A DNA stretch of 55,061 nucleotides from an uncultured Rhodospirillaceae bacterium (GTDB taxonomy: Bacteria > Pseudomonadota > Alphaproteobacteria > UBA8366 > GCA-2717185). The stretch covers positions 1-55,061 of the forward strand of contig CAYLTU010000002.1 of NCBI GenBank assembly GCA_964386465.1, read 5' to 3'. Both the position numbers and the translations under genes were made by a program. The notes under the pieces were generated by a model that saw only the letters and a list, made by a program, of their open reading frames with translations, was not told the origin of the DNA and did not search any database. Position 1 is the stretch's first letter, and each line of letters starts with the position of its first letter. Positions 1 to 51,091 of the stretch are shown one piece after another.

Positions 1-1431
1 ATCGCCACGGTCTGGGCGCGGCAGAAACCGGGCACGGACGTGGCTTGGATCAACGGGCTCCTGCATGTCATCGTTCGTGACGGCCTGATGAATACCGATT
101 TCATCGAGTCCCGCACCGAGGGCGGCGAAGCTGTGGAGAAACTGGTCGCCAGCTATACACCGGAGCGCGTCTCGGAAATCACCGGGGTTCCGGCCGAGCT
201 TATCGAAGAGGCGGCACACCTCTACGCCAAGGCGGAACGGGCATCCATCGTCTATTCCATGGGCATCACCCAGCACGTCACCGGCGTCGACAACGTCCGG
301 TCGCTGGCAAATCTGGCAATGATCACCGGGCAGATCGGCCGGCCCGGCACCGGTGTCAATCCGCTGCGCGGTCAAAACAATGTCCAGGGTGCCTGCGACA
401 TGGCTGCCCTGCCAAACTTCTTCCCCGGCTACCAACAGGTTGCCGATGCTGATATCCGGGCCAAGTTCGAAAGAGCCTGGAACGTTGAACTCCCCGATGC
501 CCCAGGCATGACGGTAACGCAAATGTTCCCGGCCGTCCTTGAGGGAAAAATTAAGGCTATGTACATCATGGGTGAGAACCCGGTGCTCTCCGATGCCGAT
601 GTCACGCATGTCGAGGAGGCGCTTGAAAAACTCGACTTCCTTGTTGTGCAGGACATTTTCCTCACCGAGACCGCAAAATTCGCCGATGTCGTTTTGCCGG
701 CGTCTTCGTTCGCCGAGCGCGACGGGACCTACGCCAATACGGAGCGCCGCGTACAACTGACGAGGCCGGTGGTGCGGGCCCCGGGCCAGGCGCGGCGGGA
801 CCTGGAGATCGTCTGCGACATCGCCACCGCCGTCGGTTATCCCATGACCTACGCCTCGACATCGGAGGTCAATGACGAGATGCGCGGGCTGACGCCTTCC
901 TACGGGGGCATTTCACATGAACGGCTTGAGGCCGGGGAGCAGCTTCATTGGCCCTGCCCATCGGACGATCACCCGGGAACACCGATCCTGCACCGCGAAA
1001 CCTTCACGCGCGGCCTTGGCCAGTTCCACCCGGTTGAATACAAGCCCGCCGACGAGGAAACCGATGCATCATTCCCAATCGTGCTGACAACCGGCCGCAT
1101 GCTGGAACACTACCACACGGGAACCATGACCCGGCGGAGCAAGGCCTTGGACGGCCTCGTTCCCGGCCCCTTTGTCGAGGTAAGCGGCGCCGACGCGACG
1201 CAAATCGAAGTCGAGGATGGCGACCCTGTGAGGGTAACCTCGCGCCGTGGCTCCATCATCCTGCCCGCCAAGGTGGGAAGCAGGGTGGACACGGGCGTCC
1301 TCTTCATCCCGTTTCACTTCTGGGAGGCGGCGGCCAATGTTTTGACGAACCCGGCGGCTGATCCAACGGCGGGAATTCCGGAATTCAAGGTTTGCGCCGT
1401 AAAGCTGGAGCGGGCACCGGAAGCTAGCTGA
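1..1431 (+). CDS. Formate dehydrogenase alpha subunit (molybdopterin oxidoreductase), C-terminal part; 5' end lies outside the window
   Basis: Frame 1 is open from base 1 (IATVWARQKPGTDVAWINGLL...) to the TGA at 1429-1431. The product carries FdhA-type molybdopterin-oxidoreductase blocks (YSMGITQHVTG, NPLRGQNNVQGACDMA, GENPVLSDAD, TTGRMLEHYHTGTMTRR). It also has the C-terminal molybdopterin-dinucleotide-binding barrel (FVEVSGADA...VRVTSRRGSI...FIPFHF). Confidence 0.9.
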   Translation: MATVWARQKPGTDVAWINGLLHVIVRDGLMNTDFIESRTEGGEAVEKLVASYTPERVSEITGVPAELIEEAAHLYAKAERASIVYSMGITQHVTGVDNVRSLANLAMITGQIGRPGTGVNPLRGQNNVQGACDMAALPNFFPGYQQVADADIRAKFERAWNVELPDAPGMTVTQMFPAVLEGKIKAMYIMGENPVLSDADVTHVEEALEKLDFLVVQDIFLTETAKFADVVLPASSFAERDGTYANTERRVQLTRPVVRAPGQARRDLEIVCDIATAVGYPMTYASTSEVNDEMRGLTPSYGGISHERLEAGEQLHWPCPSDDHPGTPILHRETFTRGLGQFHPVEYKPADEETDASFPIVLTTGRMLEHYHTGTMTRRSKALDGLVPGPFVEVSGADATQIEVEDGDPVRVTSRRGSIILPAKVGSRVDTGVLFIPFHFWEAAANVLTNPAADPTAGIPEFKVCAVKLERAPEAS

Positions 1432-1514
1432 CTCATTCAGCCATCATCGGGCGGCGGCTGGACCATCGGCGCGGGGTTGGAGACAATGGCGGTGCGGCGG
1501 TAAGGAAGGAATTG

Positions 1515-2399
1515 ATGGTGGATTCGATAAGGGAAAACTCACCGGTGGGCTATATGGAGCGGACGCGGCGATACTACCGCGCGCTCGGATACAACAACGA
1601 CTATAACTGGTCGCACTACGACGACGTGCCGTTCGCCGCGCCGAAGCGGCCGCTGTCGGAGAGCCGGGTGACGATCGTTACGACGACGAGCCCGCCCGGC
1701 GGGCCGCGCGACGGCGACCGGATGCTCAAGGAGGTGTGGAGCGGCCCGACCACGGACACGCCGTCCGACCTGTATACGGAGTTCATGTCGTGGGACAAGG
1801 AGACGACCCACACCCGCGACCGGGAAAGCTATCTGCCGATCCTGGCGCTGCGGGCAATGGCCGCGGAAGGCCGTATCGGCGGGTTGACCGAGCGTTTCCA
1901 CGGTGTGCCAACGACTTACAGCCAACGCCGGACGGTTGAACGGGACGCACCGGAAATCGTGCGCCGATGCCGGGAGGACGCCGCCGATGTCGCCCTCCTG
2001 GTCCCCATGTGACCTGTCTGCCACCAAACCGTGAGTTTGGTCGCAAGAGCACTCGAAGCCGAAGGCATCGCGACTGTCGTCGTCGGGTCGGCCCGCGATA
2101 TCGTCGAACATTGCGGCGTACCGCGCTTTCTCTTCACCGACTTCCCGCTCGGCAACCCCGCGGGACCGCCCTACGACCGGGCCGCCCAAGCGGCGATCGC
2201 GGCCCAGGCGTTCGATCTGCTGGAATCGGCGAAAGGCTCCCGGACGACCGTGCAGGCGCCGCAGTTGTGGCCGGATGGCGAGGGTTGGCGCCGCGTCTAC
2301 AATTATATCGGTCCGGAAAACCGCGATGCTCTACGCGCGGAGGGCGCCGCGCGCCGGGAACGTCAGGCGGCGGACAAGCGAAGCCTGGCGGCGTCGTAA
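1515..2399 (+). CDS. GrdB/PrdB-family (glycine/sarcosine/betaine/D-proline reductase protein B-like) putative selenoprotein; TGA at 2010-2012 read as Sec
   Basis: ORFs 1512-2012 and 2031-2399 are in the same frame and separated only by TGA. The joined product reads ...DVALLVPM-U-PVCHQTVSLVARALEAEGIATVVVGS...FPLGNPAGPPYD, which matches my recollection of the GRDB family with a UxxC/CxxC centre. There is no SD sequence before the internal GTG at 2031, whereas a strong SD (AAGGAAGGA) lies 5 nt before the ATG at 1515. A hairpin follows the TGA. Confidence 0.7.
2019..2045 (+). promoter_or_regulatory. Putative bacterial SECIS hairpin downstream of UGA 2010-2012
   Basis: Perfect 7-bp upper stem: ACCAAAC (2023-2029) pairs with GTTTGGT (2035-2041). 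The loop is 5 nt, CGUGA, and contains G-U. A 3-bp lower stem (2019-2021 / 2043-2045) is separated from the upper stem by a C.C mismatch. The stem starts 11 nt after the UGA and the loop about 18 nt after it. Confidence 0.5.
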
Positions 2400-2427
2400 G
2401 CGGCGGACGGACGGTGCAGGACGCGCG

Positions 2428-3354
2428 ATGACACGGACACTCTATTTCGATTGCAGCGCCGATATGAAGGCGCTGTACGAATCGACCGAAGGCATGGCGG
2501 ACATTCTGCCGTCCTTGGAACTGCGGCTCGGCGACCCCGACCCGTCGGAACTGCCCGGCCTGCTTTCAGGCTATACCGGCGTCCTCAACGGTCACACCCG
2601 AATGTCGGCCGAACTGCTGGACGCTTGCCCCGACGTGAAGGTCGTCGTCTTCCTCGGCACCGGGGTCGCCAGCTATGTCGACATGGAGGCGGCCGCGGCG
2701 CGCGGCATCGCGGTGCACGGGATCGCCGGTTACGGCAACCGCACCATCGCCGAGCATAGTTTGGCGCTGATGCTGGCCGGTGTGCGCGGGGTCGCGCGGC
2801 TCGACCGCGAGATGCGCGCGGGGACCTGGCGGCCTGACAGCGGTTTCGAACTGGAAGGCAAGACCTTGGGAATCGTCGGGCTCGGCGGCGTCGGACGCAC
2901 CATGGCCAAGCTGGGCGCGGCGCTCGGCATGAAGGTGATCGCCTGGAACCGCAGCGGCGTGCCGGACGGCGTCGATTGCGATTATGTCGAGATCGATACG
3001 CTGATGGCCGAATCCGACGTCGTCACCCTACACATCGATCTGGTGCCGGAAACCGAAGGCATCATCGACCGCCGCCGTCTCGAACTGCTTCGGCCGCACG
3101 CCGTACTTGTCAACGCGGCGCGCGGTGCCCTGGTCGACGAGGCGGCGCTCGCCGAAATGCTAAAAGACGGCCGCATCGGCCATGCCGCGCTCGACGTCTA
3201 CGGCACTGAACCGCTGCCGGCGGACAGCCCGTTTCGCGGTCTCGACAACGTCACCCTGACACCACATGCCGCCTGGGTCTCGCCCGAGGCCGCGACGCGG
3301 TTGCTGCGGATGGGGATCGAGCGGCTGCGCGACGCGATTGACGAGTTGCCGTAG
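2428..3354 (+). CDS. D-isomer-specific 2-hydroxyacid dehydrogenase family (NAD-binding), glyoxylate/hydroxypyruvate/phosphoglycerate dehydrogenase-like
   Basis: Start set at the ATG at 2428 (MTRTLYF...). Rossmann motif GIVGLGGVGRTMAK is present. Family blocks LLRPHAVLVNAARGALVDEAAL and ALDVYGTEPLP...LTPHAAW are also present. Confidence 0.85.
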   Translation: MTRTLYFDCSADMKALYESTEGMADILPSLELRLGDPDPSELPGLLSGYTGVLNGHTRMSAELLDACPDVKVVVFLGTGVASYVDMEAAAARGIAVHGIAGYGNRTIAEHSLALMLAGVRGVARLDREMRAGTWRPDSGFELEGKTLGIVGLGGVGRTMAKLGAALGMKVIAWNRSGVPDGVDCDYVEIDTLMAESDVVTLHIDLVPETEGIIDRRRLELLRPHAVLVNAARGALVDEAALAEMLKDGRIGHAALDVYGTEPLPADSPFRGLDNVTLTPHAAWVSPEAATRLLRMGIERLRDAIDELP

Positions 3355-6373: not shown

Positions 6374-9300
6374 CTAATTCATCTCATCAAGCAATGCTTT
6401 GGCTTCGATCAAGTCGGGGGTGTCGAAGCCTTCGGTGAACCAATCGTACGCGGGCAGCAATTTGTCGTAAGCCTCATTTCGTCTGCCTTGGTCATTCCAA
6501 AGCCGGGCGAGGACAGTAGTTGCGCGAAGTTCGTAACTGCGGGCCGAGCGCAGCCGGGCATCCTTGATCGCAGTTTCCAAGGCCTGTTGCGCCTGATCGA
6601 AAGCCTGCCTGCCGCGAGTGATATGCGCAATTCCGAGAATGCGGTACAGCTCAGCTAGAAAGAAATGTTCGCCCGTCTTTCGAGCGCAACTAATGCCTTC
6701 CTGGGCCGCACGTATGGATTCTTCCGGTTCGCCAAGTCGTTGCCATGCGTCGGCGATAAGCGTAAGAAAATAAGTTTGAACGAATACCGTGCCCATAGAA
6801 CGTCGCCGCTCAAGATATTCCCGCATTGCGACCGCCGCGTGACGATCCTGTTCCGTACGAACTGCAAGCCAAGCTTTGAGCAACTGCACCTCGGTGAAGT
6901 ATATCTCCAGACCGAATTTATCGATCAATGGCGCGATGTAATTGAGCCGACTTTCGAGCGTTTCAAGATCGTCTAGAAGTTGCGGCAGCACATTGGCCCA
7001 ATTGTAAGCATGACCAATAATTTGCGGATGCCCTAACTCTGCCGCGTGCTCCAGGCCTTGGCTGTTCCGAGCTATCGCTTGCTCGGGATAGCCTAAGGCA
7101 AAAAGCGCATTGCCACTATTGATAAGCCCGCATTCGCGCGCATCGTGACCACCAAAAGCCATGGCGTGATCAGCGTGACGCTCAACATCGTAAATCGCAA
7201 GAACTCGATCAGCGTGTTCGCATGTGCCTTGCAGGTTGCCTTGAAACAGATATGAAGAAAACAATGCATGGTGCGCCTGCACTTCGTAGTCGACGTCGGC
7301 CCGAGATTTTGCGTCCTCAAGCAGCTTTTTGGCCATCGGAATAGATTCGGTATATTCCGCGCGGGCGTTTTGGATTCGCCATAGTGCCCATTCAACCCTG
7401 AACCAACTCTTTCGGTCATTAAGGTCTTCGGCCAACGCGCTGGAGCGCCGCTGGACTTGCTCCGTTTGCACGGAAGCTGGGCCATGGCAGTTCATAACAG
7501 CAACATTAAGTCGTCCGAGAAGCTCCAGTTCACGGCGCTTCAGATCTTCGCTACGAGGCAAGTTATGGAGTTGTTCGATAGCGTGCTCGAATGCCGAGGC
7601 TGCCTCGGCCATGGCGGAGCGATTCTGTGCCAGGGTGCCGGCTTTCGCCCATGCAATCGCCGCCGCGTCATGACGATTCGCCGCTGTCAAATGATGCGCC
7701 ATTACTTCTGGCGCGGTCCCGGACGGACTGTTGGTCAGCGAATCAGCAATCTTCCCATGGAGCTGTTCGCGTCGGCTCCTGAGCAGACTGGCGTACGCGG
7801 CTTCTTGGATCAAGGCGTGTTTGAAGGTGTATCTCGCGTCGTGAGATGTACCGGAACGAAAGACCAGTTCGGAACCAGTCAGTCTGTCCAATGCCACCTC
7901 CAGGTCCACTGCGGTCATTTCGGCAACAGGCAGAACTAGATCGTACGAAAACTCGCGCCCGAGGACCGCGCCAATCTGCGCGATTTTCTTTGCTTCCGTA
8001 CCCAATCTGTCGATGCGCGCAAGCAGAGACGATTGCAAGCTATCTGGGATATCCGCCTCCGCAACGTCAAACCCACTTTCGACCAATGATTTGGTCAGTT
8101 CCTCGATGAAAAGCGGCACCCCATCCGTGCGTGCGACAATTCGTGCCATAACGTCTTTCGGCACGTGGTCACCGGCGATCGCTCCCACGATCTCGGCAAC
8201 TTGCGCCTTACCGAGTCGGTTGAGTTGTAGAGAGGTGACATGATTGTGGCCGCTGGGCGGTAACTGCCATTCGGGGCGGTGTGTGATGATGAGCAAGACC
8301 CGTGCTTGCTGCAAGTGTCCAATAATCAACTCCAGAAGTTCCAAACTGGTGGGGTCGATCCAATGGCTGTCCTCAAATAGAAACAAAACCGGTTTGTGCG
8401 CGGCCAACTGCATCAGATGCGAAACGAGCGCCTTCAGAAGGAGTTCCTTGGTTTGTTGTGACGTTTGTTCGAGCGCGCCGTGGCGCGTTTCATATGGCAA
8501 TGAAAGGAGGTGTGCGAACAACGCCGTATGGGACTCGACGTTATCGTCCGTTTCCCGCAGCATACTAGCCAATTTGTCGAGTTTGTGCTCGCTATCGTCG
8601 TTCGGTCGAAAGCCACAAGCATACTGCAACTGCTGGATCGTTGGGTATAAGGCACTGTTGCTGTGATATGATGAGCATTGATAACGAACGCGGAAGTGAT
8701 CGCTTTCTGCCACCTGATCATGCAAGCCTTGCATCAATCTCGACTTTCCAATGCCTGCTTCACCTGAGATCAGCACAACCTGCCCTTCGCCACCTAACGC
8801 AAGTCGCCAACGATCCAGCAATAATTGCAACTCTGCTTCGCGCCCAACGAAGCGCGTCGTTCCGCCGCTATGTGCAGCTTCAAACCGACTTTCCGCCACC
8901 ACTTCGCCCACGATGCTCCACGCCTGCACTGCCGCTTTGAATCCCTTCAAGTTATGAGCGCCAAGATCATCGACATTAAAGGTTTGTCCGACCAGACGGT
9001 ATGTGGGCTCGCCAATCACCACTTGCCCCGGCTCGGCAACATCCTGAAGTCGCGCCGCGAGGTTGGGAGTTTCGCCGCTCACCGCTTCCACATCGCTACC
9101 GCTTTCCCCGACCAGGTCGCCGACCACCACTTGTCCAGTGGCAATGCCAACGCGCGCGGCCAAGGCGGCGTGGCCGGCCATCTGCTCGGAAGAGACGGCA
9201 ACGACGGCGTTTAGACCCGCCCGCACCGCCCGCTCTGCCTGATCCTCATAGGCCTGCGGCCAGCCGAAATAGGCGAGCACACCGTCGCCCAGATATTTCG

Positions 9301-9733
9301 CCACGTGGCCGCCATAGCGCGTCACCGCATTGACCACCGCATCCTGATACCGGCGCATGACATCTCGTAGGTCTTCCGGATCGAGTTGCTGCGATAGCGC
9401 CGTCGAGCCCACCAGGTCGCAGAACATCACTGTCAATTGCCGGCGTTCGGCCGACGGTGAGACTGACGGGGCGTTCTTCGCGGGGGATACCATGTCATCG
9501 GCATCGTCCGCCGATACGCCTGGCACCGCCAAGGCACCGATTGCGCGGATAAGAATTTTACGACGCCCCATCGTGGCGACACCGAGATCCTTCAAATCAC
9601 TGTCGTTGAGATCAGCAGCAAGGTCGAGATTTATCTCGTTCTCTTCAAAGGCGTCAGCGTAACCCGCCAGCCCTAATCCATCCAGCCATGCTCGTATGCT
9701 GCTCGCCATGCTTTGCCTCCCCAACACTCGCAT
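6374..9733 (-). CDS. Multidomain SAM-domain / class III adenylate-guanylate cyclase / STAND (AAA_16) ATPase / TPR-like protein
   Basis: 1,119-aa ORF; the likely start is MASSIRAWL at 9709. SAM-like N-terminus: LDGLGLAGYADAFEENEINLDLAADLNDSDLKDLGVATMGRRKILIRAI. Cyclase blocks: RRQLTVMFCDLVGST, KYLGDGVLAYFG, GETPNLAARLQ. Walker A GEAGIGKS lies at 8741-8767, and a Walker B-like PVLFLFEDSHWID follows. The C-terminal ~600 aa is a helical repeat region. Confidence 0.9.
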   Translation of the reverse strand: MRVLGRQSMASSIRAWLDGLGLAGYADAFEENEINLDLAADLNDSDLKDLGVATMGRRKILIRAIGALAVPGVSADDADDMVSPAKNAPSVSPSAERRQLTVMFCDLVGSTALSQQLDPEDLRDVMRRYQDAVVNAVTRYGGHVAKYLGDGVLAYFGWPQAYEDQAERAVRAGLNAVVAVSSEQMAGHAALAARVGIATGQVVVGDLVGESGSDVEAVSGETPNLAARLQDVAEPGQVVIGEPTYRLVGQTFNVDDLGAHNLKGFKAAVQAWSIVGEVVAESRFEAAHSGGTTRFVGREAELQLLLDRWRLALGGEGQVVLISGEAGIGKSRLMQGLHDQVAESDHFRVRYQCSSYHSNSALYPTIQQLQYACGFRPNDDSEHKLDKLASMLRETDDNVESHTALFAHLLSLPYETRHGALEQTSQQTKELLLKALVSHLMQLAAHKPVLFLFEDSHWIDPTSLELLELIIGHLQQARVLLIITHRPEWQLPPSGHNHVTSLQLNRLGKAQVAEIVGAIAGDHVPKDVMARIVARTDGVPLFIEELTKSLVESGFDVAEADIPDSLQSSLLARIDRLGTEAKKIAQIGAVLGREFSYDLVLPVAEMTAVDLEVALDRLTGSELVFRSGTSHDARYTFKHALIQEAAYASLLRSRREQLHGKIADSLTNSPSGTAPEVMAHHLTAANRHDAAAIAWAKAGTLAQNRSAMAEAASAFEHAIEQLHNLPRSEDLKRRELELLGRLNVAVMNCHGPASVQTEQVQRRSSALAEDLNDRKSWFRVEWALWRIQNARAEYTESIPMAKKLLEDAKSRADVDYEVQAHHALFSSYLFQGNLQGTCEHADRVLAIYDVERHADHAMAFGGHDARECGLINSGNALFALGYPEQAIARNSQGLEHAAELGHPQIIGHAYNWANVLPQLLDDLETLESRLNYIAPLIDKFGLEIYFTEVQLLKAWLAVRTEQDRHAAVAMREYLERRRSMGTVFVQTYFLTLIADAWQRLGEPEESIRAAQEGISCARKTGEHFFLAELYRILGIAHITRGRQAFDQAQQALETAIKDARLRSARSYELRATTVLARLWNDQGRRNEAYDKLLPAYDWFTEGFDTPDLIEAKALLDEMN

Positions 9734-17124: not shown

Positions 17125-18288
17125 ATGGACCCGTTCGAATCCAGCGTCTCCTGGCGCAAGCGCCCTAGCGTGAAAAGCGTCCAGGAATTGCTCGCCATGG
17201 CGCACGACCGGTCGCGCGAAGGCCGGGAATTCCTGGTGACCGCGGCGGGAGAGTTCATCGCCGAAGAAAACGGCGTGCTCAACGAAAAAGAGCGCGCCCT
17301 TATGACCGATATCCTGAACCGTCTGGTGAAAGAGGTCGAGGTCTCGGTACGTCAGAAGCTCGCGCAACGCTTGGCCGATGCGGAGAATGCGCCTCATACA
17401 CTTATAGTTGAGCTGGCGAACGATGAAATTGAAATCGCGGCGCCGGTTCTCAACCGCAGCAAGGTATTGAAAGATATCGATCTGATTGAAGTGGTTCGGC
17501 ATAAGACCCTGGAGCATCAGCTTGCCGTCGCGGTGCGTGAGTCGATTGCGGCGCCCGTATCCGACGCGTTGGTGCAATCCGGCAATCCCGATGTCGTCGA
17601 GACGCTGCTCAAGAACAAGGGTGCCGCGCTCGCTCCGGAAACGCTGGAAACCGTTATTGAACAATCGCGCGAGCGCCGGAATTATCAGGAACCACTGCTG
17701 CAGCGCGAGGAGCTTGGCCCGGAATTGGCCAAACGAATGTATTGGTGGGTGTCCGCCGCGCTTCGTACGGCGATCCTCGACCGTTACGAGCTCGATCCGG
17801 AAGCGTTCGACGACGCCATGGAGGACGCCGTTCACGAGACGCTGGCGGAGGCAGGAGTCGACGCCGGGAGGAAAGCGCCGGAAACGCTCGCCGCGCTGCT
17901 AAAGATCGACGAGGTCGCGCAGAGTGAATTGGTCAAGGCGTTGCGGGAGGGCGATATAACGAAGTTCCAATCGTTAATTCAAAAGGCGACGGGGCTCGGT
18001 CTGCCGCTGCTGCGTGTCCTGCTTTTCGAACCGGGCGGAGAGCGCCTCGCCATCGTCTGCCGCGCCATCGAAATGGCGCCCAAGGTCTTCGCCGCGATCT
18101 ACCGGCTGTTGCGCATGTCGTCGGATGGCGCGACACCGCTGAAGCGCGGTGAGTTGACTCGGATCGCGTCACTCTATCTGGACATAAATCCGGATTTGGC
18201 GTTGGCCGTCTTGCGGCAGTGGCGCCGGAACCCGGATTACCTCGCCGCGATCGAGCAGGTTACGGGTAAGCCGGCACGACTTTCATAA
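17125..18288 (+). CDS. DUF2336 domain-containing protein (paralogue 1)
   Basis: 387 aa, helical-repeat protein. It shares the core LANDEIEIAAPVLNRSKVLKDIDLIEVVRHKTLEHQLAVAVRESI...SDALVQSGNPDVVETLLKN with the ORFs at 18365 and 34470. Confidence 0.8.
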   Translation: MDPFESSVSWRKRPSVKSVQELLAMAHDRSREGREFLVTAAGEFIAEENGVLNEKERALMTDILNRLVKEVEVSVRQKLAQRLADAENAPHTLIVELANDEIEIAAPVLNRSKVLKDIDLIEVVRHKTLEHQLAVAVRESIAAPVSDALVQSGNPDVVETLLKNKGAALAPETLETVIEQSRERRNYQEPLLQREELGPELAKRMYWWVSAALRTAILDRYELDPEAFDDAMEDAVHETLAEAGVDAGRKAPETLAALLKIDEVAQSELVKALREGDITKFQSLIQKATGLGLPLLRVLLFEPGGERLAIVCRAIEMAPKVFAAIYRLLRMSSDGATPLKRGELTRIASLYLDINPDLALAVLRQWRRNPDYLAAIEQVTGKPARLS

Positions 18289-18364: not shown

Positions 18365-19465
18365 ATGGCGCAACAGGGACAAAATATCGAAGCACTGCTT
18401 CAGATTGCGCTTGACCCATCGTCGTCGGGCCGCAACGCGTTGGCGAAATCCGTCGTGGATATCTGTTTGGAGGACGGCGCGTCTCTCAGCGCTCGCGAGG
18501 TCGAACTCACCTTCGATATCCTGCACAAGCTCTTGCAAAGTGTGGAAATGGGGGTTCGTCGCGATTTGGCCCAACGTCTGGCCTATCGCGCTGACGTCCC
18601 ACGCGACCTGATCGTGACCTTGGCCAACGATCAGATCAACGTCGCCTATCCCGTACTCGTCGAGAGCGAAGTCCTGGAAGATTCGGATTTGATCGCGATC
18701 GCGCGCAAGCAACCTGCCAGCCATCAGATCGCGATCACCTTGCGCGAGCGCGTCAGCACGGATGTCTCGGAAGCGCTGATCGACACCGAGAATGTCGACG
18801 TTATCGATTCTCTTATGCGGAACCCGGCAGCGGAAATTGCACCGGTGACGATGGAACGGCTGGTGGAGATGTCCCGCGAAACGCCACCGCTTCGCCGGCC
18901 GTTGCTGCAAAGGCAGGACTTGCAACCGGAACTGGCGCGACAGATGTCGGAGTGGGTCGGTGATGCGTTGAAGGAATTCATCACGACGAACTACCCGGCG
19001 GCATTCGACAAGGTCGAATTCGATATCGACGAAGCCGTTCGCAGGGTCTCCGGTGAGTCCGATACGGCAGCGGAAAGCGATTTGAACGCGCGGGTCGCCG
19101 ATATCGAGAATACCGGCGGCATTACGGCCGATACCTTGATTGAGGCGTTGGCCCTTGACGATATCGAACTGTTCGAAGCGCTATTCGCGCGGCGAACCGG
19201 CATCGATACGGTCGCGATGCCGGTGCTGGTTTACGACCCTGGCGGTGAGCCTTTTGCCATCGCTTGCAGGGGCTGCGGCTTCTCGCAGGAGGAATTCGAA
19301 ACGCTTTTCCTGCAATTAACAAAATCCCTGGCGGGCGAACATGATGCGGACTCCGAGGAGTTCAGACGCATTAGCGTTTACTACAAGAAGCTGGATGACG
19401 GCGCCGTCCGCAGCGTTATCGACGAATGGACGCGAGCACCGGCAAAAGCGTGGGATACCGCCTAA
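18365..19465 (+). CDS. DUF2336 domain-containing protein (paralogue 2, tandem)
   Basis: 366 aa. Core: LANDQINVAYPVLVESEVLEDSDLIAIARKQPASHQIAITLRERV...SEALIDTENVDVIDSLMRN. It lies 76 nt downstream of paralogue 1. Confidence 0.8.
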   Translation: MAQQGQNIEALLQIALDPSSSGRNALAKSVVDICLEDGASLSAREVELTFDILHKLLQSVEMGVRRDLAQRLAYRADVPRDLIVTLANDQINVAYPVLVESEVLEDSDLIAIARKQPASHQIAITLRERVSTDVSEALIDTENVDVIDSLMRNPAAEIAPVTMERLVEMSRETPPLRRPLLQRQDLQPELARQMSEWVGDALKEFITTNYPAAFDKVEFDIDEAVRRVSGESDTAAESDLNARVADIENTGGITADTLIEALALDDIELFEALFARRTGIDTVAMPVLVYDPGGEPFAIACRGCGFSQEEFETLFLQLTKSLAGEHDADSEEFRRISVYYKKLDDGAVRSVIDEWTRAPAKAWDTA

Positions 19466-28180: not shown

Positions 28181-28492
28181 TAACGCCGCGCTCCTGCCGG
28201 GATATCGACGACCTTCCCTTTGGCGTTACGCCTGTCTGGCGTCCGACCGGAAAGTGTTTTCCCGCCGCAAGCACGATCCGCCGCCGAATTCCAAAGAATG
28301 TGGCGTACGACCGCACAACAAAATTCGGCTGCTTCGGATGCCAAAGGCGGTGGCAAAGCGCTCTAAATCTCAATGTCCTGAATCATACACATCTGCGCAG
28401 TCGGATCAATATTACCGCTGATGAGGGATTCGTTGCGCGGCCAATCCGGTTGCTTTTAGATATGAGTGTTACACTGGAAAAGGGAAATTCCG

Positions 28493-29434
28493 ATGTCGAG
28501 AGTGATTACAGTGGGCGGCGCGCAGATGGGGCCGATCGCGCGCGCGGACAGCCGGGCGGTGGTGGTCGAGCGTATGATCGGGCTGCTCGATACCGCGCAC
28601 GCGCGCGGCTGCGCCCTCGTCGTCTTTCCGGAATTGGCCTTGACGACCTTCTTCCCGCGCTGGTGGATGGAAAGCCAGAACGAGATCGATTCCTTCTTCG
28701 AGAGCGAGATGCCGGGGCCGGAAACACAACCCCTGTTCGACCGGGCGCGCGAACACGGCATCGGCTTCTATCTCGGCTATGCGGAGAAGACGGTAGAGGA
28801 CGGTGAGACGCACCGCTACAACACGGCGATCCTGGTCGATCAGGAGGCCAACATCGTCGGCCGATACCGCAAGGTGCATCTGCCCGGCCACTACGAACAC
28901 GAACCGGAGCGTCCCTGGCAGCATCTCGAAAAGGGCTATTTCGAGGTCGGCGATCTCGGCTTCCCGGTATGGCGCACGATGGGCGGCGTGATGGGCATGT
29001 GCCTGTGCAACGACCGGCGCTGGCCCGAAACCTTCCGCGTCATGGGGATGAAGGGGGTCGAGATGGTGATGCTCGGCTACAACACGCCGGCCGCGAACGC
29101 CGTCGGGCCGGAACCATTCCACGTCCGCATGATGCACAACCACATCACCATGCAGGCCGGCGCCTACCAGAACGGGACCTGGGTCGTCGGCGTCGCCAAG
29201 GCCGGGCCGGAGGAGGGCTGCGACCTGATGGGCGGCAGCGTCATCGTCGCGCCCTCGGGCGAGATCGTCGCCCAGGCGCATACCTTGGGGGACGAGTTGA
29301 TCGTCGCCGAATGCGACCTCGACGAATGCACCTTCAACAAGACGACGATCTTCAATTTCGAAGCGCACCGCCGTCCGGAGCACTACAAGATCATCACCGA
29401 ACAGGTCGGCGTGACCCCGCCGCCGGAGGAATAA
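28493..29434 (+). CDS. N-carbamoyl-D-amino-acid hydrolase (D-carbamoylase; nitrilase superfamily)
   Basis: Collinear with my recollection of Agrobacterium DCase: GPIARA, FPELALTTFFPRW, EMPGP, YRKVHLPGH, LCNDRRWPE, FNFEAHRRPEHY. The Glu-Lys-Cys catalytic triad contexts are all present. Confidence 0.9.
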   Translation: MSRVITVGGAQMGPIARADSRAVVVERMIGLLDTAHARGCALVVFPELALTTFFPRWWMESQNEIDSFFESEMPGPETQPLFDRAREHGIGFYLGYAEKTVEDGETHRYNTAILVDQEANIVGRYRKVHLPGHYEHEPERPWQHLEKGYFEVGDLGFPVWRTMGGVMGMCLCNDRRWPETFRVMGMKGVEMVMLGYNTPAANAVGPEPFHVRMMHNHITMQAGAYQNGTWVVGVAKAGPEEGCDLMGGSVIVAPSGEIVAQAHTLGDELIVAECDLDECTFNKTTIFNFEAHRRPEHYKIITEQVGVTPPPEE

Positions 29435-29438
29435 CGCG

Positions 29439-30095
29439 ATGACCGAATCCATCGTCGTCATCAACCCGAACTCGACCGCCGCTTGCACCGAGGCGATCGA
29501 TACGGCGATGCAACCGCTGCGCATGGCGGGCGGGCCGGGGATCGAGTGCGTCACCATGGCGGAGGGTCCAGCGGGAATCGAAAGCCAGCACGATTCCGAC
29601 AGCATCATCATGCCGCTCTGCGACTACATCCATGCGCGGGACAACGAGGCGGGCGCGTTCGTTATCGCCTGTTTCAGCGACCCGGGCCTGCACGCCGCGC
29701 GCGAGAAGACGGACCATCCGGTGCTGGGTATCGCCGAATCCGCCTATATGACGGCAATGACCCAGGGGGAAAAATTCGGCGTCATTTCGATCCTGGAACC
29801 GTCGGTGAAGCGGCACGGTCGCTATGTGCGGCAAATGGGCATCGCAGCGCGCAGCGCCGGCGACCGCGCCATCGGTCTCGGCGTGGTCGAACTCGCCCAG
29901 GCGGACAAGGTGCTCGACCGCATGATCGAGACGGGCCGCGCCTTGCGCGACGAGGACGGCGCCGACGTGCTGATCCTCGGCTGCGCCGGCATGGCGCGCT
30001 ACCGCGACCGGGTTTCCGACGCACTGAAGGTTCCGGTCGTCGAGCCGACTCAATCCGCTGTTACGATGGCGTTGGGACGGCTGCGCTGCGGGTAG
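29439..30095 (+). CDS. Asp/Glu/hydantoin racemase family protein (hydantoin racemase-like)
   Basis: 218 aa. Blocks VINPNST, FVIACFSDPGL and VLILGCAGM provide the two catalytic Cys contexts. It lies 4 nt downstream of the carbamoylase gene. Confidence 0.85.
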   Translation: MTESIVVINPNSTAACTEAIDTAMQPLRMAGGPGIECVTMAEGPAGIESQHDSDSIIMPLCDYIHARDNEAGAFVIACFSDPGLHAAREKTDHPVLGIAESAYMTAMTQGEKFGVISILEPSVKRHGRYVRQMGIAARSAGDRAIGLGVVELAQADKVLDRMIETGRALRDEDGADVLILGCAGMARYRDRVSDALKVPVVEPTQSAVTMALGRLRCG

Positions 30096-30159
30096 CGGCG
30101 TTGGTGCTGTTGATGTTGGATTGACGACATCGTTGGAACAGCCAATTTTTGATAATTTA

Positions 30160-30177
30160 CATTTGTATTTACAAATG
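30160..30177. promoter_or_regulatory. Perfect palindrome CATTTGTA-TT-TACAAATG upstream of brnT (candidate operator/promoter)
   Basis: 8-bp arms with a 2-nt spacer, 12 nt upstream of the brnT ATG, inside an AT-rich stretch. It overlaps possible -35 TTGATA (30149-30154) and -10-like TACAAA hexamers. Confidence 0.35.
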
Positions 30178-30188
30178 ATATTGTTTCC

Positions 30189-30485
30189 ATGACCGAATTC
30201 GAGTGGGACGATGTTAAGAGCGCCGAGAATTTGGCCAAGCATGGCCTCAGTTTCGAAGAAGCTGCGCGAATTTTCCAAGGCTTCGTACTGACAAATGTCG
30301 ATGACCGTGAAGATTACCGAGAAGTACGAGAAATCAGCCTCGGATTACTGGAAGGGCTGGTCGTTCTAAGTGTTGCGCACACGGACCGGAGTGGCGTCAC
30401 TCGAATTATCTCGGCTCGGAAAGCGACAAGAGCGGAGCGGAGCCTATTTTATGAGTATCTCGAAAAAGCGATTGGCGGAAATTGA
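30189..30485 (+). CDS. brnT: BrnT-family (DUF497) type II toxin
   Basis: MTEFEWDDVKSAENLAKHGLSFEEAARIF...TRIISARKATRAERSLY-like tail, characteristic of the BrnT/DUF497 family. Confidence 0.9.
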   Translation: MTEFEWDDVKSAENLAKHGLSFEEAARIFQGFVLTNVDDREDYREVREISLGLLEGLVVLSVAHTDRSGVTRIISARKATRAERSLFYEYLEKAIGGN

Positions 30486-30708
30486 CGCGATTGAGGATGA
30501 CGAGATCGATACGTCCGACATTCCGGAACTGGATCGATCTTTCTTTGAGAATGCGCGATTTCTCATACCGAGCGTTTCGGCCAAAAGAACGGTAACGATG
30601 CGCTTGGATCAGGATGTATTTGATTGGTTTAAGGGCCAGGGCAAAGGGCATCTTACGCGAATGAATGCCGTGCTCAGGGCCTACATGCTATCCAGGCAAT
30701 CTGATTGA
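30451..30708 (+). CDS. brnA: BrnA-family antitoxin
   Basis: Start at the ATG at 30451, overlapping brnT by 35 nt. The block DDEIDTSDIPELDRSFFENA...VTMRLDQDVFDWFKGQGKGHLTRMNAVLRAYM matches the BrnA pattern. Confidence 0.85.
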   Translation: MSISKKRLAEIDAIEDDEIDTSDIPELDRSFFENARFLIPSVSAKRTVTMRLDQDVFDWFKGQGKGHLTRMNAVLRAYMLSRQSD

Positions 30709-30733
30709 ACAATCATTCGTTTAGGCCGCTCGC

Positions 30734-31588
30734 CTAACGCGCCTTGTTCCGTGTATAGTCGCAGACCGTCTCGATTAGCTTGGTCATCACCCGGCGCTGT
30801 TCGTCGAAATGCCCGTCGCGCTTCTTCATGTTGCGCTCGTCCCAATAGAGCCGGCGGTTGATCTCGATCTGAAGGCTGTGACGATCCTTGTCCGGATCGC
30901 TGTAGGCGCGGACCAGTTCGACACCCTTTTGCCCGTCATTTATGCCGACATGGAAGCCGAAGCCGGCCAACGTCTCGCGCACCAGTTCGGTGAACTCGGC
31001 GCCGGCGGTCGTGCCGTCGCGATTCCCCAGCACGTAGTCGTTTTCGTTCGGCTCGCCGGCCTTCTCGAATCCGGTCGCCCATTTCGACGGCATCGAATGG
31101 CAGTTGATGTGCCAGGCGGCGCCGAAGTTTTCATGCGTCGCGTCGAGTGTCTCGCGCAAGGTGTCGTGATAGGGCCGCCAGTATCGTTCGATACGATTTC
31201 TGACCTCCGCAACCGAGAGCTTGCGTTCGTAGATCGCCTTGCGGTCGCGGCCGGATTGGGTGCGGATCAGCCCCATGCCCGACTTGGTCTTGTGGCTTAC
31301 CTCCAGCGGATGCGGCCAGTCGCCGTCCAGCATGTCCGGATCGATGTCCGCCGGCGACCGGTTGGGATCGATATACATGCGGCTGAACTCGGCCGCGATC
31401 AGCGGCGCGCCATGGTCGGGGGCGGCGGCGAAGAGTTCCTCGACATGAGGGTCCTCTCCGCGCCGCAGCATCGACAGCGGCACGACGTAATCGAAATCGT
31501 CCGGGTAATGGCTGCCGCTGTGCGGCGAATCGAACACCACGGGGGCGGGATCGCCGCGCGGCGGGATGACGGTGACGGGGACTTGCAT
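30734..31588 (-). CDS. N-formylglutamate amidohydrolase (FGase) family protein
   Basis: Blocks: VFDSPHSGSHYP, YIDPNRS, INCHSMPS. The start lies 2 nt after the stop of the upstream hydantoinase gene. Confidence 0.85.
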   Translation of the reverse strand: MQVPVTVIPPRGDPAPVVFDSPHSGSHYPDDFDYVVPLSMLRRGEDPHVEELFAAAPDHGAPLIAAEFSRMYIDPNRSPADIDPDMLDGDWPHPLEVSHKTKSGMGLIRTQSGRDRKAIYERKLSVAEVRNRIERYWRPYHDTLRETLDATHENFGAAWHINCHSMPSKWATGFEKAGEPNENDYVLGNRDGTTAGAEFTELVRETLAGFGFHVGINDGQKGVELVRAYSDPDKDRHSLQIEINRRLYWDERNMKKRDGHFDEQRRVMTKLIETVCDYTRNKAR

Positions 31589-34305: not shown

Positions 34306-34469
34306 TACTTCGCTTCGATTGCAGTTGTTTTTACCTCAACATGGCGAAGCTAGAGAATACAAAAAAACGAATTATTAACCTTATGTTATAGTATTATCTG
34401 CGGATAGAATCGTGTCCCCGTTTGTGCAACGGGGCCGTTGGCGATGAGTTTGAGTTTGGAAGGCATGAA

Positions 34470-35573
34470 ATGACCGAATTGGGCGGTGACGCGCTTTTCG
34501 CGTTGGCACGGGATAAATCGGCGGACGGGCGGAAGGCTTTGGTCGAAGCGATCGGGTCCCTGTCGGCCGGCGAAGGATCGCCTTTGACGGATCGCGAACG
34601 CGGCCTGATGTTCGATATTCTCGGTCACCTCGTGCATGAAACGGAAATGTCGGTGCGCCGAACCGTAAGCGCCTGTCTTGCGGAGTTGCCGGATGCGCCC
34701 CGCGACCTGATCCGGCTGCTTGCGAACGACGATATCGAAATCGCCTATCCTGTACTGACCAATAGCGGCGTCCTGCAGGACGACGACCTGATCGAGGTGG
34801 TCAGTCACCGCACGCAGGAACATCAACTCGCCATCACAATCCGCAGCACCATCAACGAGGCGGTATCGGACGCGCTGGTTGAAACCGGAAACGAGAATGT
34901 CATCCGGTCCCTGTTGAAGAACACCGACGCCAAAATCTCCCGCAGCACGATGGAACATCTGGTCGAGCAGTCGAAGCGCGTCGATTCCTTCCAGGAACCG
35001 ATCCTGCACCGGCGCGAACTCGACCCTGAACTGGTCAAAAACATGTTCACCTGGGTCTCTTCCGCGCTGCGCCAATACATCGTCGACGATTGGGACCTGG
35101 ATTCGGCAACCGTCGACAATTTGCTGGAACGGGCGACGGCGCGCGAGGTGCAAGCCGCTGCCTACGACGCGCGGGAACTGTCCAAGTCGCAGCAGCTGGC
35201 GGAAAACCTCGAGGCGATCGGCAAGGTGACGCCGGAAATGATGCTTGGCGTCCTGCGGGAGGGCGAAGTCGCCTTGTTCATCGCCATGTTCACACGGTTC
35301 ACCGCCCTCGACGAGACCTTCGTGCGGCGCATGCTGTTCGAGCATGGCGGCAACGCGCTGGCGATCACCTGCAAGGCGGCGGGCATAGGCAAGGCGATCT
35401 TCGCGTCGATCTTCGCGCTGACACGCAACAAGCAGAATTCGGACGAGGAAGACTTGCGCAAGGAAACCCGGCAGTGCCTTGCGATATACAACAAGACGTC
35501 GCGCGACAAGGCGATGGAAACGGTCCAGCGCTGGCAGGCGAACAACGCCGCCATGAGCGCGTTGAAACAATAG
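34470..35573 (+). CDS. DUF2336 domain-containing protein (paralogue 3)
   Basis: Start set at the ATG at 34470 (MTELGGDALF...). Core: LANDDIEIAYPVLTNSGVLQDDDLIEVVSHRTQEHQLAITIRSTI...SDALVETGNENVIRSLLKN. An AT-rich leader precedes it. Confidence 0.8.
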   Translation: MTELGGDALFALARDKSADGRKALVEAIGSLSAGEGSPLTDRERGLMFDILGHLVHETEMSVRRTVSACLAELPDAPRDLIRLLANDDIEIAYPVLTNSGVLQDDDLIEVVSHRTQEHQLAITIRSTINEAVSDALVETGNENVIRSLLKNTDAKISRSTMEHLVEQSKRVDSFQEPILHRRELDPELVKNMFTWVSSALRQYIVDDWDLDSATVDNLLERATAREVQAAAYDARELSKSQQLAENLEAIGKVTPEMMLGVLREGEVALFIAMFTRFTALDETFVRRMLFEHGGNALAITCKAAGIGKAIFASIFALTRNKQNSDEEDLRKETRQCLAIYNKTSRDKAMETVQRWQANNAAMSALKQ

Positions 35574-35601
35574 TGGATTGTATCCACTAGAGGCGGGCCT
35601 T

Positions 35602-37134
35602 ATGGCGGAAGCGAAGCGTCGGACTAGAGAGTTGAAATCAGTGACGGACGACAAAGCGATCGCGGCGACGGCAATTGGCAAGGCTGCGGCGGCCGAACAC
35701 CGCCTTTACAATCTGGGCCGGCTGGTATCCGCCTGGATTTGGGAAACCGACGCGGAGTTTCGCCTGACCGACGTGTCCTATCGCGTGTTCGATATGCTCG
35801 GCCTGCACCCGCAGGAACTGATTGGCCGGCGGCTCCGGGATATCGGATCTTTCGTGACCTTGGAGGACTTTCCGGCCGGGGGCGAAAGCCAGTCGACCTT
35901 TCGCGACGTCTTCTTCGAAGTACCGAACCGGGAAGGGCAGAAGCGCTTATTCCTGGTCAGTGGCCTTCCCGTATACGATCAGGATACGGGCGAATTCCGC
36001 GGTATGCAGGGCATTGCCGAGGACGTGACCCGGCATCCCAGGGCCGATGCGGAGTTCGAAAAGCTCTTCGAGTCGCTGGAACAGAGCCTCGTTCTCGTGA
36101 TGATCGCCAATTCCGAAGGCGAGATCGAATATGCGAACGAGAAGTTTCAGGAGGCTACCGGCTATAACCTTGAGGAACTGAAACGGATTTCGCCCTGGAA
36201 CCTCGTCGACATGAAAAAGGACGAGCGCGAACAAAAGCTTGAGCACATCCGCGAGGGCAATGAATGGATCGGCGAGTCCCACTATCGCCGCAAGAACGGT
36301 GCCTTGTTCTGGGCCGCGGAACGAATTTCGCCGATCCCCGCACAGGATGGCGGGATCGATCGCCTGTTATGGGTGATCGAAGATAAGACGGCGCGGCGGG
36401 TTTACAGCACCCATCTTCAAAATCGCGCCGATCCCGAACTTTTCACCGACATGCCGAGCCGCATCCGCAACGCGGTGTTCCTGGTCCTCTCGAGCGAAAA
36501 CTGTCTGATGGCGAAGCTGCAGGTCGAGAATTTGGCGCTGGACGACGCGCTGAACAGGCTGCCGCTCGGCATGATTGTCGTCGATGCGTTCGCAAGACCT
36601 ATCCGCATGAACCGGGCTGCAAAGGCGATCCTGGACGCCGACGACGGCCTGTCGCTAGGCCGCGACGGTTTGCAGGGCGAATCGGACGGCCAGCTGATCA
36701 AACTGAAGGATGTCATCTGGCGCGCCGGTCGAATCAAAAAAGGCAAAAAGGACGATGACACTGGCGCGATCGCGCTGGAAAGGCCTTCGGGCGACCGGCC
36801 GCTTTCGCTGGTCGTCACGTCGTTGCGGACGGAATCGCATTATTTCGACAAGGACCGGCCGGCTGCCCTGATTTTCCTCGGCGATCCGGAGACCCATCCG
36901 GAGTTCGACGAAGACCGGCTTAGCAGGCTGTACGGGCTGACCAGGGCCGAAGCGCGTTTGGCGGCGCTGCTGGCACAAGACCTGAGTCTCGCGGACGCAG
37001 CCGACGAGCTGTCGGTCAGCCAGCATACCGTGCGGACCCATGTGAAGCGGATTTTTTCCAAGACGACCACGGAGCGGCAATCCGGCCTGATCCGGCTCCT
37101 GCTTAGCGGCCCCGCGTCCGTTAGCCCCGATTGA
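35602..37134 (+). CDS. PAS-domain sensor / LuxR-family (GerE HTH) transcriptional regulator
   Basis: Two PAS-like segments (WIWETDAEFRLTDVSYRVFDMLG... and IANSEGEIEYANEKFQEATGY...YRRKNGALFWAAERISPI). C-terminal HTH: LTRAEARLAALLAQDLSLADAADELSVSQHTVRTHVKRIFSKT. Confidence 0.85.
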   Translation: MAEAKRRTRELKSVTDDKAIAATAIGKAAAAEHRLYNLGRLVSAWIWETDAEFRLTDVSYRVFDMLGLHPQELIGRRLRDIGSFVTLEDFPAGGESQSTFRDVFFEVPNREGQKRLFLVSGLPVYDQDTGEFRGMQGIAEDVTRHPRADAEFEKLFESLEQSLVLVMIANSEGEIEYANEKFQEATGYNLEELKRISPWNLVDMKKDEREQKLEHIREGNEWIGESHYRRKNGALFWAAERISPIPAQDGGIDRLLWVIEDKTARRVYSTHLQNRADPELFTDMPSRIRNAVFLVLSSENCLMAKLQVENLALDDALNRLPLGMIVVDAFARPIRMNRAAKAILDADDGLSLGRDGLQGESDGQLIKLKDVIWRAGRIKKGKKDDDTGAIALERPSGDRPLSLVVTSLRTESHYFDKDRPAALIFLGDPETHPEFDEDRLSRLYGLTRAEARLAALLAQDLSLADAADELSVSQHTVRTHVKRIFSKTTTERQSGLIRLLLSGPASVSPD

Positions 37135-37889: not shown

Positions 37890-38084
37890 ATGAGCGGAAA
37901 GGACAATACCGAGGCTTTGAAAGCGGCGCGCGTCGCCGGTCTCCACCGGATGGCGGAAAATTTCCCCGACGATGTCGTCCGTGCCTTCGAGTTCGCCAAA
38001 TCCCTGCGCAATCGGATGACAATCGATGTCGCGCCGTCCGACGAACCCGCGCATGTCTATCGCGCCGGCGGAGGCGGCCAATGA
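37890..38084 (+). CDS. 64-aa AtzG/GatC-like small protein (DUF4089-like), translationally coupled to the amidase
   Basis: SD GGAGGG lies 7 nt upstream of the ATG. The stop TGA (38082-38084) overlaps the amidase ATG at 38081 (ATGA). The C-terminal ...APSDEPAHVYRAG resembles the acidic-Pro-Ala tail I recall for AtzG/DUF4089 partners of amidase-signature enzymes. Confidence 0.5.
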   Translation: MSGKDNTEALKAARVAGLHRMAENFPDDVVRAFEFAKSLRNRMTIDVAPSDEPAHVYRAGGGGQ

Positions 38085-39481: not shown

Positions 39482-39493
39482 CGGACCGGGTTT

Positions 39494-40558
39494 GTGGAGG
39501 GGCCTTCGTTCAAATCGCGCGACGACGCGGTCAAGCAGGACTGGGACGCCCTCGACCGGCATCTCAATAGCCGTGGCCATGCTCTGACCGGTGACGAGCC
39601 GCCGCGCCAGTTTGCTTCCGGCTTCGGCAATATCAACTATCTGCTCGAGTTGGATGGCGAATTGCGCGTGTTGCGGCGACCGCCGACCGGGCCCGTGCCG
39701 CCGGGCGCGAACGATATGGGCCGGGAGAGCAAGATCCTGACCGGTCTGTGGCGCGAATTTCCACTTGCGCCGAAATGCCTGCTTTTCTGCGACGAAGCGG
39801 CGGTGCTGGGCGCGCCCTTCTTCATCATGGAATACCGGCCGGGCCTGGTGATCGGCGGCGAGATGCCGGACGACGTCGCGACCCGCGGAATGCCGGGGGC
39901 GGCGATCGGCAAGACGCTCGTCACCTTGCTGCACGATCTGCATCGCGTCGACCCGGTGGCGGTTGGGTTGGACGATCTGGGGCGGCCGGAGGGGTTCCGC
40001 GAGCGCACCGCTGCGGGTTGGATCAAACGCGCGCGAATGGCCTGGGATGGCGAGCCGCCATCGGTGGTCGACGAAATAGAGGGTTGGCTCGGCGTCGAAC
40101 GAAAGCTCCCGGAACAGGCCATCGCCTTTCTGCACAACGACTTCAAGCTCGACAATGTGGTGCTCGATTTGGAAAGCCTGGAGCCCGTCGCGGTGCTCGA
40201 CTGGGATATGGGGACGCGCGGGGACCCGCTGGTCGATCTCGGCGCGATGCTGGGTTATTGGACCGAAGCGGGTGACCCGGAGGCGATGCAGCAGCTCAAG
40301 CAGATGCCGACGGCCGGGTACGGCTTTCCGAGTCGCGAGGCGGTCGCCGCCGATTACGCCGCGCGCACCGGCCGAGACCTGTCGGAGTTTAAATGGTACC
40401 GCGTGCTGACCAGCTTCAGGGTCGCTGTCATCTTCCAGCAATTGCACAGGCGCTATCGGGAAGGCGGCGCCGGCGATCCCCGTTTCATGGAATTTGGCAG
40501 ACTGGCGGAGGGCTTGCTCGACTTCAGCCACGAAGTCGCACGAGGCCGCATTTTTTAA
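39494..40558 (+). CDS. Phosphotransferase (APH/choline-kinase-like) family protein
   Basis: GTG start. Blocks: FGNINYLL, FFIMEYRPG, FLHNDFKLDNVVL (Brenner motif HxDxxxxN) and DWDMGTRGDPLVDL. Confidence 0.8.
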   Translation: MEGPSFKSRDDAVKQDWDALDRHLNSRGHALTGDEPPRQFASGFGNINYLLELDGELRVLRRPPTGPVPPGANDMGRESKILTGLWREFPLAPKCLLFCDEAAVLGAPFFIMEYRPGLVIGGEMPDDVATRGMPGAAIGKTLVTLLHDLHRVDPVAVGLDDLGRPEGFRERTAAGWIKRARMAWDGEPPSVVDEIEGWLGVERKLPEQAIAFLHNDFKLDNVVLDLESLEPVAVLDWDMGTRGDPLVDLGAMLGYWTEAGDPEAMQQLKQMPTAGYGFPSREAVAADYAARTGRDLSEFKWYRVLTSFRVAVIFQQLHRRYREGGAGDPRFMEFGRLAEGLLDFSHEVARGRIF

Positions 40559-51012: not shown

Positions 51013-51091
51013 TCTGATTGTCCGTTCTGGCATTCGACGGTTTGGACGATACACTACCGATCTGAATTTCCTATCCGCCAGGCCGAGGATC

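Follow-up and report, generated by a model that had tools for sequence, protein, structure and literature searches.

An in-frame UGA codon at positions 2010 to 2012 of a contig from an uncultured Rhodospirillaceae bacterium (GenBank accession number CAYLTU010000002.1) very probably encodes selenocysteine (Sec) within a single PrdB-like protein. The contig was analyzed over a stretch of 55,061 nucleotides, termed the window. Selenocysteine in a U-P-V-C motif had been proposed in an earlier sequence-only reading, made without database searches, and it is now supported by an alignment column occupied by either TGA or a cysteine codon in 80 genomes and by a covarying hairpin located 3' of the UGA.

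One reading frame interrupted by a TGA codon

Translation of positions 1515 to 2402 on the forward strand gave one frame of 294 codons, extending from ATG 1515 to the TAA that ends at 2399, with the TGA at 2010 to 2012 as its sole interruption. The two open reading frames (ORFs) listed for this region, 1512 to 2012 (+, 166 aa) and 2031 to 2399 (+, 122 aa), share this frame, exactly as the sequence-only reading had described. Across the junction the translation runs ...DVALLVPM, then the TGA, then PVCHQTVSLVARALEAEGIATVVVGS...; with Sec read in, the junction peptide of the fused product becomes ...LLVPM-U-PVCHQTVSLVAR, and the mass of the gene product is predicted to be approximately 32 kDa. 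The strong Shine-Dalgarno sequence reported for ATG 1515 was found (Table 1), and inspection of the sequence ahead of GTG 2031 revealed no purine-rich or Shine-Dalgarno-like stretch, again as had been reported. The GC content at third codon positions (GC3) in the selenoprotein frame is 0.84 in the part 5' of the TGA and 0.76 in the part 3' of it, and the coding bias therefore runs on across the TGA as claimed, although a value of 0.73 was also obtained for frame +1 of the downstream part. As TGA serves as the ordinary stop codon in 11 of 27 Pfam-supported genes of the window, any recoding at 2010 to 2012 would be local and the genetic code standard rather than reassigned.

TABLE 1 Coordinates of features in the window
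Feature	Position	Strand	Remarks
Formate dehydrogenase alpha, 3' part, Cys type	1-1431	+	Outside the system; TIGR01591, 578 bits; N-terminus cut by window edge
Shine-Dalgarno-like AAGGAAGGA	1502-1510	+	4 nt 5' of ATG 1515; read from sequence
CDS part 1, 165 codons, Met1-Met165	1515-2009	+	Start aligned with Met of full-length homologues; public gene calls end here
UGA, predicted Sec codon, residue 166, first residue of U-P-V-C	2010-2012	+	Cys in this column in all full-length homologues; TGA/TGY only across 80 genomes
CDS part 2, 128 codons, plus TAA stop (2397-2399)	2013-2399	+	Aligns at high identity with C-terminal half of full-length homologues; dN/dS 0.08-0.34 versus ten relatives
TGC, Cys169, presumed resolving Cys of UxxC	2019-2021	+	Nearly invariant column
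SECIS-type hairpin	2020-2044	+	Core stem 2023-2029/2035-2041, loop CGUGA 2030-2034, two outer pairs 2020-2021/2043-2044
GUG (Val codon) in hairpin loop	2031-2033	+	False start codon of downstream ORF fragment; GTG in 73/73 Sec genes and 1/8 Cys genes
D-2-hydroxyacid dehydrogenase	2429-3354	+	Pfam 2-Hacid_dh_C, 196 bits; directly downstream
CN_hydrolase	28466-29431		Opposite to antisense ORF
Asp/Glu racemase	29439-30092		Opposite to antisense ORF
N-formylglutamate amidohydrolase	30737-31588		Opposite to antisense ORF
Amidase	38081-39481		Opposite to antisense ORF
Kinase-like gene, following the amidase	39494-40558		Opposite to antisense ORF
DUF2336			Opposite to antisense ORF
FtsY-like SRP54 GTPase	46982-48334		Opposite to antisense ORF
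CO dehydrogenase/xanthine dehydrogenase-type molybdenum hydroxylase, FAD-binding and large subunits	51005-54716	+	Window end

The TGA codon exchanges only with cysteine codons

A search with the fused product, in which U was replaced by C, identified 1886 relatives. The best of these are approximately 291 aa long, cover 92 to 99% of the query at 54 to 60% identity, and carry the source names "glycine reductase" or "PrdB". The sequence-only reading had proposed aligning Cys-containing homologues with the codon at 2010 to 2012, and in all full-length homologues a Cys occupies this column, within P-L-C-P-V-C-H-Q-T, with similarity extending to the C-terminus.

To a comparative set of 80 loci, obtained by scanning one genome per species (species-representative genomes), Alphaproteobacteria, Myxococcota, Deltaproteobacteria, Spirochaetales, Flavobacteriales, Pseudomonadales, Burkholderiales, and Acidobacteriota all contributed. 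The codon aligned with the window TGA is TGA in 72 of the 80 genomes and TGT or TGC in the remaining 8, while TAA or TAG was found at this column in none of them. Carriers of TGA include Rhodospirillaceae, Reyranella species in culture (R. massiliensis 521, R. soli, and R. aquatilis among them), Hyphomicrobiaceae, Myxococcota, Deltaproteobacteria, and Spirochaetales, as well as Flavobacteriales, Pseudomonadales, Burkholderiales, and Acidobacteriota. At least 123 open codons follow the TGA in every one of the 73 TGA genes (72 genomes plus the window). When the window was compared with ten relatives, dN/dS downstream of the TGA ranged from 0.08 to 0.34 and was equal to or lower than the upstream value in nine of the ten comparisons; by this measure the downstream part is under purifying selection. 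A TGA is also present at the same site in contig L001, which was assembled independently and shares 99.4% identity with positions 1 to 2035 of the window.

These comparisons bear on a rival reading in which the locus is a pseudogene of a Cys enzyme, its TGA having arisen by nonsense mutation or through misassembly. Homologues of the Cys form do exist, and in one genome a single TGY-to-TGA change would look the same; however, the codon recurs in the independent assembly and in 72 of 80 species from several phyla, neither of the other two stop codons ever takes its place, and the downstream half is open with low dN/dS. A pseudogene is thus considered extremely improbable.

A covarying hairpin follows the UGA

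The core of a SECIS-type hairpin begins 10 nt after the UGA and conforms to the consensus ACCARAC-CGUGA-GUYUGGU, which corresponds to positions 2023 to 2041 of the window. The hairpin was predicted in the window and at nearly all TGA loci. Taken by itself, the window sequence does not fold with exceptional stability (z = -0.77 in a shuffle test), and support for the hairpin therefore comes from the comparison across genomes. Paired bases were found in 97.7% of hairpin cells, versus 21 to 35% in controls in which the partner column was slid, compensatory changes were identified in three pairs, and the observed covariation score was reached by none of 500 shuffles. At pair 18-28 the Sec genes comprise 29 A-U, 43 G-C, and 1 G-U combinations with no mismatch, and the pair is formed in four of the eight Cys genes. 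This pair joins the wobble position of a Gln codon to the first position of a Leu codon; neither change alters the protein, and the result is a compensatory swap from CAA/UUG to CAG/CUG at synonymous sites. Pair 15-31 changes from C-G to U-A in three genes, accompanied by an amino acid change from Val to Thr or Ile.

Of the two loop codons, GUG is fixed in the Sec genes (Table 1), and AGU occurs in 69 of the 73 Sec genes and two of the eight Cys genes. Pairs 18-28 and 19-27 are broken in four and six of the eight Cys genes, respectively. On this pattern of substitutions, the hairpin structure is held by selection in TGA genes and relaxed in most Cys genes. An intact hairpin sequence, CACCAGACCGTGAGTCTGGT, was observed in one Cys form (TGT) from a Bradyrhizobium metagenome-assembled genome (L021:6478-6522), which suggests a recent Sec-to-Cys replacement in that lineage; in the remaining Cys forms the hairpin has been lost.

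In the fdhF-type SECIS of Escherichia coli the upper stem lies approximately 10 to 11 nt downstream of the UGA and carries a small apical loop with G-U, and the hairpin described here resembles it in both spacing and loop. Like that element, the window hairpin is located within the coding sequence, directly 3' of the UGA; unlike it, its sequence is family specific and has no Rfam model, as searches of Rfam returned nothing relevant at either the gathering or a permissive threshold. By analogy with other bacterial SECIS elements, the hairpin would recruit SelB carrying Sec-tRNA(Sec), and we infer that decoding of the UGA depends on SelB.

Public gene calls break the gene at the Sec column

A profile search of 1.84 billion cluster representatives, with the Cys homologues as the basis of the query, returned 1746 matches at an E value of ≤0.001 and 131 at ≤1e-30. 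Among the top 150 representatives, approximately 29 end one residue before the Sec column and approximately 22 start at profile position 165 or 160, which is 2 to 7 residues past it; approximately 16 start at position 165, matching GTG 2031. One public entry (P0002) is a truncated call of 165 aa that is 98% identical to the first part of the coding sequence. The splitting or truncation that had been predicted for standard gene callers is therefore seen on a large scale. In the sequence-only reading, homologues terminating here or encoded by a separate pair of genes were to count against a selenoprotein; such entries are literally present in protein databases, but they are gene-calling artifacts of the same TGA.

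The same entries match what would be expected if the locus encoded two proteins, one of 165 aa ending at TGA 2012 and another of 122 aa starting at GTG 2031. Opposing this, GTG 2031 lacks a ribosome-binding site and falls in the invariant hairpin loop, each Cys form is one polypeptide of 291 aa that is colinear with both halves, and the six codons that separate the TGA from the GTG, which would be intergenic if there were two genes, are nearly invariant (PVCHQT). We give the two-gene arrangement almost no weight. Taken together, the single frame, the TGA/TGY column, the open downstream part with its low dN/dS, the TGA in L001, and the standard code lead us to exclude a pseudogene, a sequencing error, two genes, and a reassigned code. 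The gene should be annotated as one selenoprotein of 294 residues and not as two hypothetical fragments; public protein sets widely show the same split for this family, which scores below threshold with every Pfam and NCBIfam model.

Selenocysteine machinery and readthrough

No selA, selB, selD, or tRNA-Sec gene was found in the 55-kb window or in the examined flanks of relatives, a span that in the case of the window is too small to be informative, and no tRNA-Sec gene was found in 60 related loci. Neighboring gene clusters of SelA- or SelB-like size were considered and rejected, as they proved to be antisense artifacts and a PBP2. The TGA at 39479 was rejected as a second recoding site, being the ordinary stop of an amidase gene after which a kinase-like gene follows in frame.

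The formate dehydrogenase alpha gene noted upstream in the sequence-only reading is present, ending at 1431, but it was rejected as a sign of Sec use because it encodes a Cys-type enzyme. In L001 the gene occupies positions 1 to 2475 and includes N-terminal Fe-S domains, has no in-frame stop, and encodes ...DHCARLCHSST..., NNVDHCARLCHSST; the Cys of this motif sits at the position occupied by Sec in E. coli FdhF. Adjacency to this gene thus lends no support to Sec decoding, and the organism apparently inserts Sec into the PrdB-like protein but not into its formate dehydrogenase. A formate dehydrogenase gene beside the PrdB-like gene was not seen at other loci among the 80 genomes.

Readthrough of the UGA by a near-cognate tRNA (Trp or Cys), with no Sec machinery involved, would be compatible with the sel genes not being found in the window or the examined flanks, and a C directly after UGA makes the stop leaky. 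However, the column exchanges only with Cys in a UxxC redox motif, which is the classic Sec/Cys signature; a hairpin with SECIS-typical spacing and a GU loop is selected only in TGA genes; and the family is listed among accepted selenoproteins. Near-cognate readthrough is therefore judged very unlikely, and insertion of Sec is the preferred explanation.

Genomic neighborhood

A D-2-hydroxyacid dehydrogenase gene lies directly downstream of the selenoprotein gene (Table 1), and a cluster of this type is also found downstream in the closest relatives (L002, L003, L004, and L006), being present at 8 of the 80 loci in addition to the window. The ORF listed for it, 2275 to 3354 (+), overlaps the last 125 nt of the selenoprotein gene, and the Pfam match within this ORF starts at its residue 93. 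The likely start is ATG 2429, just past the TAA at 2397 to 2399.

None of PrdA, PrdC, GrdA, GrdE, GrdC, and GrdD was found among the genes of the window. Similarly, no PrdA, GrdE, or GrdA partner was found near the gene in the 80 genomes, in which one may lie elsewhere, and the Pfam-annotated flanks of the Cys forms contained no PrdA, PrdC, or Grd partner domains. No neighboring family was present at more than 15 of the 80 loci and hence none qualified as a conserved partner; CoA-transferase III was the most common (15 loci), followed by 2-hydroxyacid dehydrogenase (8 loci). Rarer recurrent neighbors were TauD, PhyH, amidase, enoyl-CoA hydratase, luciferase-like monooxygenase, SDR, gamma-glutamyltranspeptidase, and formamidase, and in one Cys form (L082) cytochrome oxidase genes adjoin the PrdB-like gene.

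Within a subclade of Cys forms, two representatives (P0122 and P0126) have a PrdB-like domain fused to acyl/acetyl-CoA synthetase (AMP-binding) domains, and at other loci (L082:5050-7864 and L052:4033-5985) the PrdB-like gene is found immediately downstream of an AMP-binding acyl/acetyl-CoA synthetase gene. This association may offer a functional hint limited to the Cys-form subclade. A general link to acyl-CoA synthetases was dropped, as AMP-binding flanks were present at 2 of the 80 loci, both of them Cys forms.

Other genes in the window

Three paralogous DUF2336 genes were identified at 17125 to 18285 (+), 18365 to 19462 (+), and 34422 to 35570 (+), two of which are in tandem. The gene at 6374 to 9733 (-) encodes a protein of 1119 aa with SAM, adenylate/guanylate cyclase, AAA_16 ATPase, and TPR domains; the GC content of this stretch is 54 to 55% versus 62% for the window, with a GC3 of 0.60, and a horizontal origin of the gene is possible. 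In the GC-rich DNA of the window, many of the longest ORFs are antisense shadows that lack a Pfam match (28466 to 31588, 34389 to 35681, 39032 to 40531, and 46982 to 48334), and the real genes on the opposite strand (Table 1) have GC3 values of 0.75 to 0.87.

Predicted structure and possible function

A structure was predicted with AF2 for a Cys homologue rather than for the fused Sec protein, with medium confidence (pLDDT, 74.5; pTM, 0.78). The model has an alpha/beta fold in which the CxxC lies between a strand (residues 151 to 154) and a helix (residues 159 to 174), the second Cys being in the first turn of this helix. No significant relative was found in the PDB by sequence search or by Foldseek with the AF2 model. 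Mapped onto this model, Sec166-Pro-Val-Cys169 follows a beta strand and leads into the N-terminus of a helix, where redox-active CxxC motifs usually lie.

Following the GrdB/PrdB paradigm, the selenolate would attack an electrophilic substrate carbon or a disulfide, Cys169 would resolve the adduct by forming an Se-S bond, which would then be re-reduced by a cellular dithiol, for example thioredoxin. By this analogy, the mechanism with the most support is a GrdB/PrdB-type selenol/thiol redox cycle carried out by a stand-alone enzyme. As no PrdA, GrdE, or GrdA partner was found in the window or near the gene in the 80 genomes, the enzyme probably acts alone, on what would be a small molecule. 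The enzyme is probably not a D-proline or glycine reductase, and with no such partner nearby the name "proline reductase" is probably wrong. The family is abundant in ocean and soil bacteria, where it occurs amid variable small-molecule catabolic genes. On balance we lean toward the view that the PrdB-like family is a stand-alone selenoenzyme of aerobic heterotrophs whose reaction is unrelated to the Stickland-type reduction of D-proline or glycine. If this is true, the twenty-year-old "proline reductase" label is a misnomer hiding an uncharacterized selenium-dependent activity. The finding bears on the role of a very common "PrdB" selenoprotein in aerobes that have no adjoining proline reductase partner gene.

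Comparison with PrdB, GrdB, and the marine "PrdB" family

The sequence-only reading had assigned the protein to the GrdB/PrdB family. Superfamily homology spanning the TGA was recovered, but all curated cutoffs were missed. The strongest match was to TIGR04483 (PrdB), at 74.5 bits against a cutoff of 300 (E value, 8e-21); it spans the TGA and aligns residues 84 to 244 of the fused protein with profile positions 66 to 226 of 238. TIGR01918 scored 30.8 bits against a cutoff of 65.45 (residues 97 to 221, profile positions 277 to 404 of 431), and PF07355 (GRDB) scored 17.9 bits against a cutoff of 22 (residues 26 to 162, profile positions 202 to 344 of 347). The GrdH/GrdF/GrdB equivalog models gave 23 to 37 bits against cutoffs of 600 to 800, with remote matches that span the TGA. 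By these scores, homology to the PrdB and GrdH/GrdF/GrdB models is remote but clear. The missed cutoffs, together with the U-P-V-C-H-Q-T motif, place the protein in a distinct PrdB-like branch of the GrdB/PrdB superfamily and not in PrdB or GrdB proper.

The window protein is homologous to clostridial PrdB (TIGR04483) over approximately 160 residues across the Sec, and both have UxxC, the motif given for PrdB in reviews. Unlike clostridial PrdB, it has approximately 80 extra N-terminal residues, and no PrdA pyruvoyl proprotein or PrdC neighbor was found beside genes of the window type. The hosts also differ, those of the PrdB-like family being aerobic Proteobacteria and similar groups whereas those of clostridial PrdB are Stickland fermenters; the cytochrome oxidase genes beside the PrdB-like gene in L082 are one example of the aerobic setting. 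With respect to GrdB/GrdF/GrdH, the window protein resembles 55% of GrdB at its C-terminal end, a part that contains the Sec region, but is approximately 140 residues shorter. The GrdB motif has been described as UxxCxxC (PMC13188914), whereas the window motif, U-P-V-C-H-Q-T, lacks the second Cys at +6. In contrast to GrdB systems, grdA, grdE, grdC, and grdD were not found in the window or at the 80 loci.

The closest known system is the marine "proline reductase PrdB" family of UxxC selenoproteins described by Zhang, Fomenko, and Gladyshev in 2005 (PMC1088965) and by Zhang and Gladyshev in 2008 (PMC2398784). The family was represented by 42 genes in the Sargasso Sea data, making it the third most abundant known selenoprotein family there (PMC1088965), and by 235 Sec and 110 Cys forms in the GOS data, in which it was among the most abundant families (PMC2398784). 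Both papers give the "PrdB" name and counts only and do not discuss the missing PrdA partner or covariation (PMC1088965, PMC2398784). Since the family, together with its UxxC motif and Sec codon, was already published in 2005 and 2008, the biological gain from the window gene is small.

A sequence in the 2005 supplement reads ...RFYGIPTDYSQRQT...LLVPLuPVCHQTVGLVARHLESNGIPTV...GVPRFLFTDFPLGNP... (PMC1088965), and another entry, AACY01202822, labeled GrdB and not PrdB, reads ...LLVPNuPVCHQTVSLVARHLE... and has the same hairpin DNA (PMC1088965). The window protein shares with this family the motifs RF(H/Y)G(V/I)PT-YSQR-T...LLVP-x-U-PVCHQTV(S/G)LVAR-LE...GVPRFLFTDFPLGNP, the UxxC, a TGA aligned with Cys, and the hairpin DNA TGA CCC GTC TGC CAC CAG ACC GTG AGT CTG GTT. 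Judged by these shared features, the window gene belongs, as an ordinary representative, to a selenoprotein family that has been known since 2005, and for it the Sec call is correct and not new; it shows no essential difference from the marine "PrdB" genes and represents another orthologue of them.
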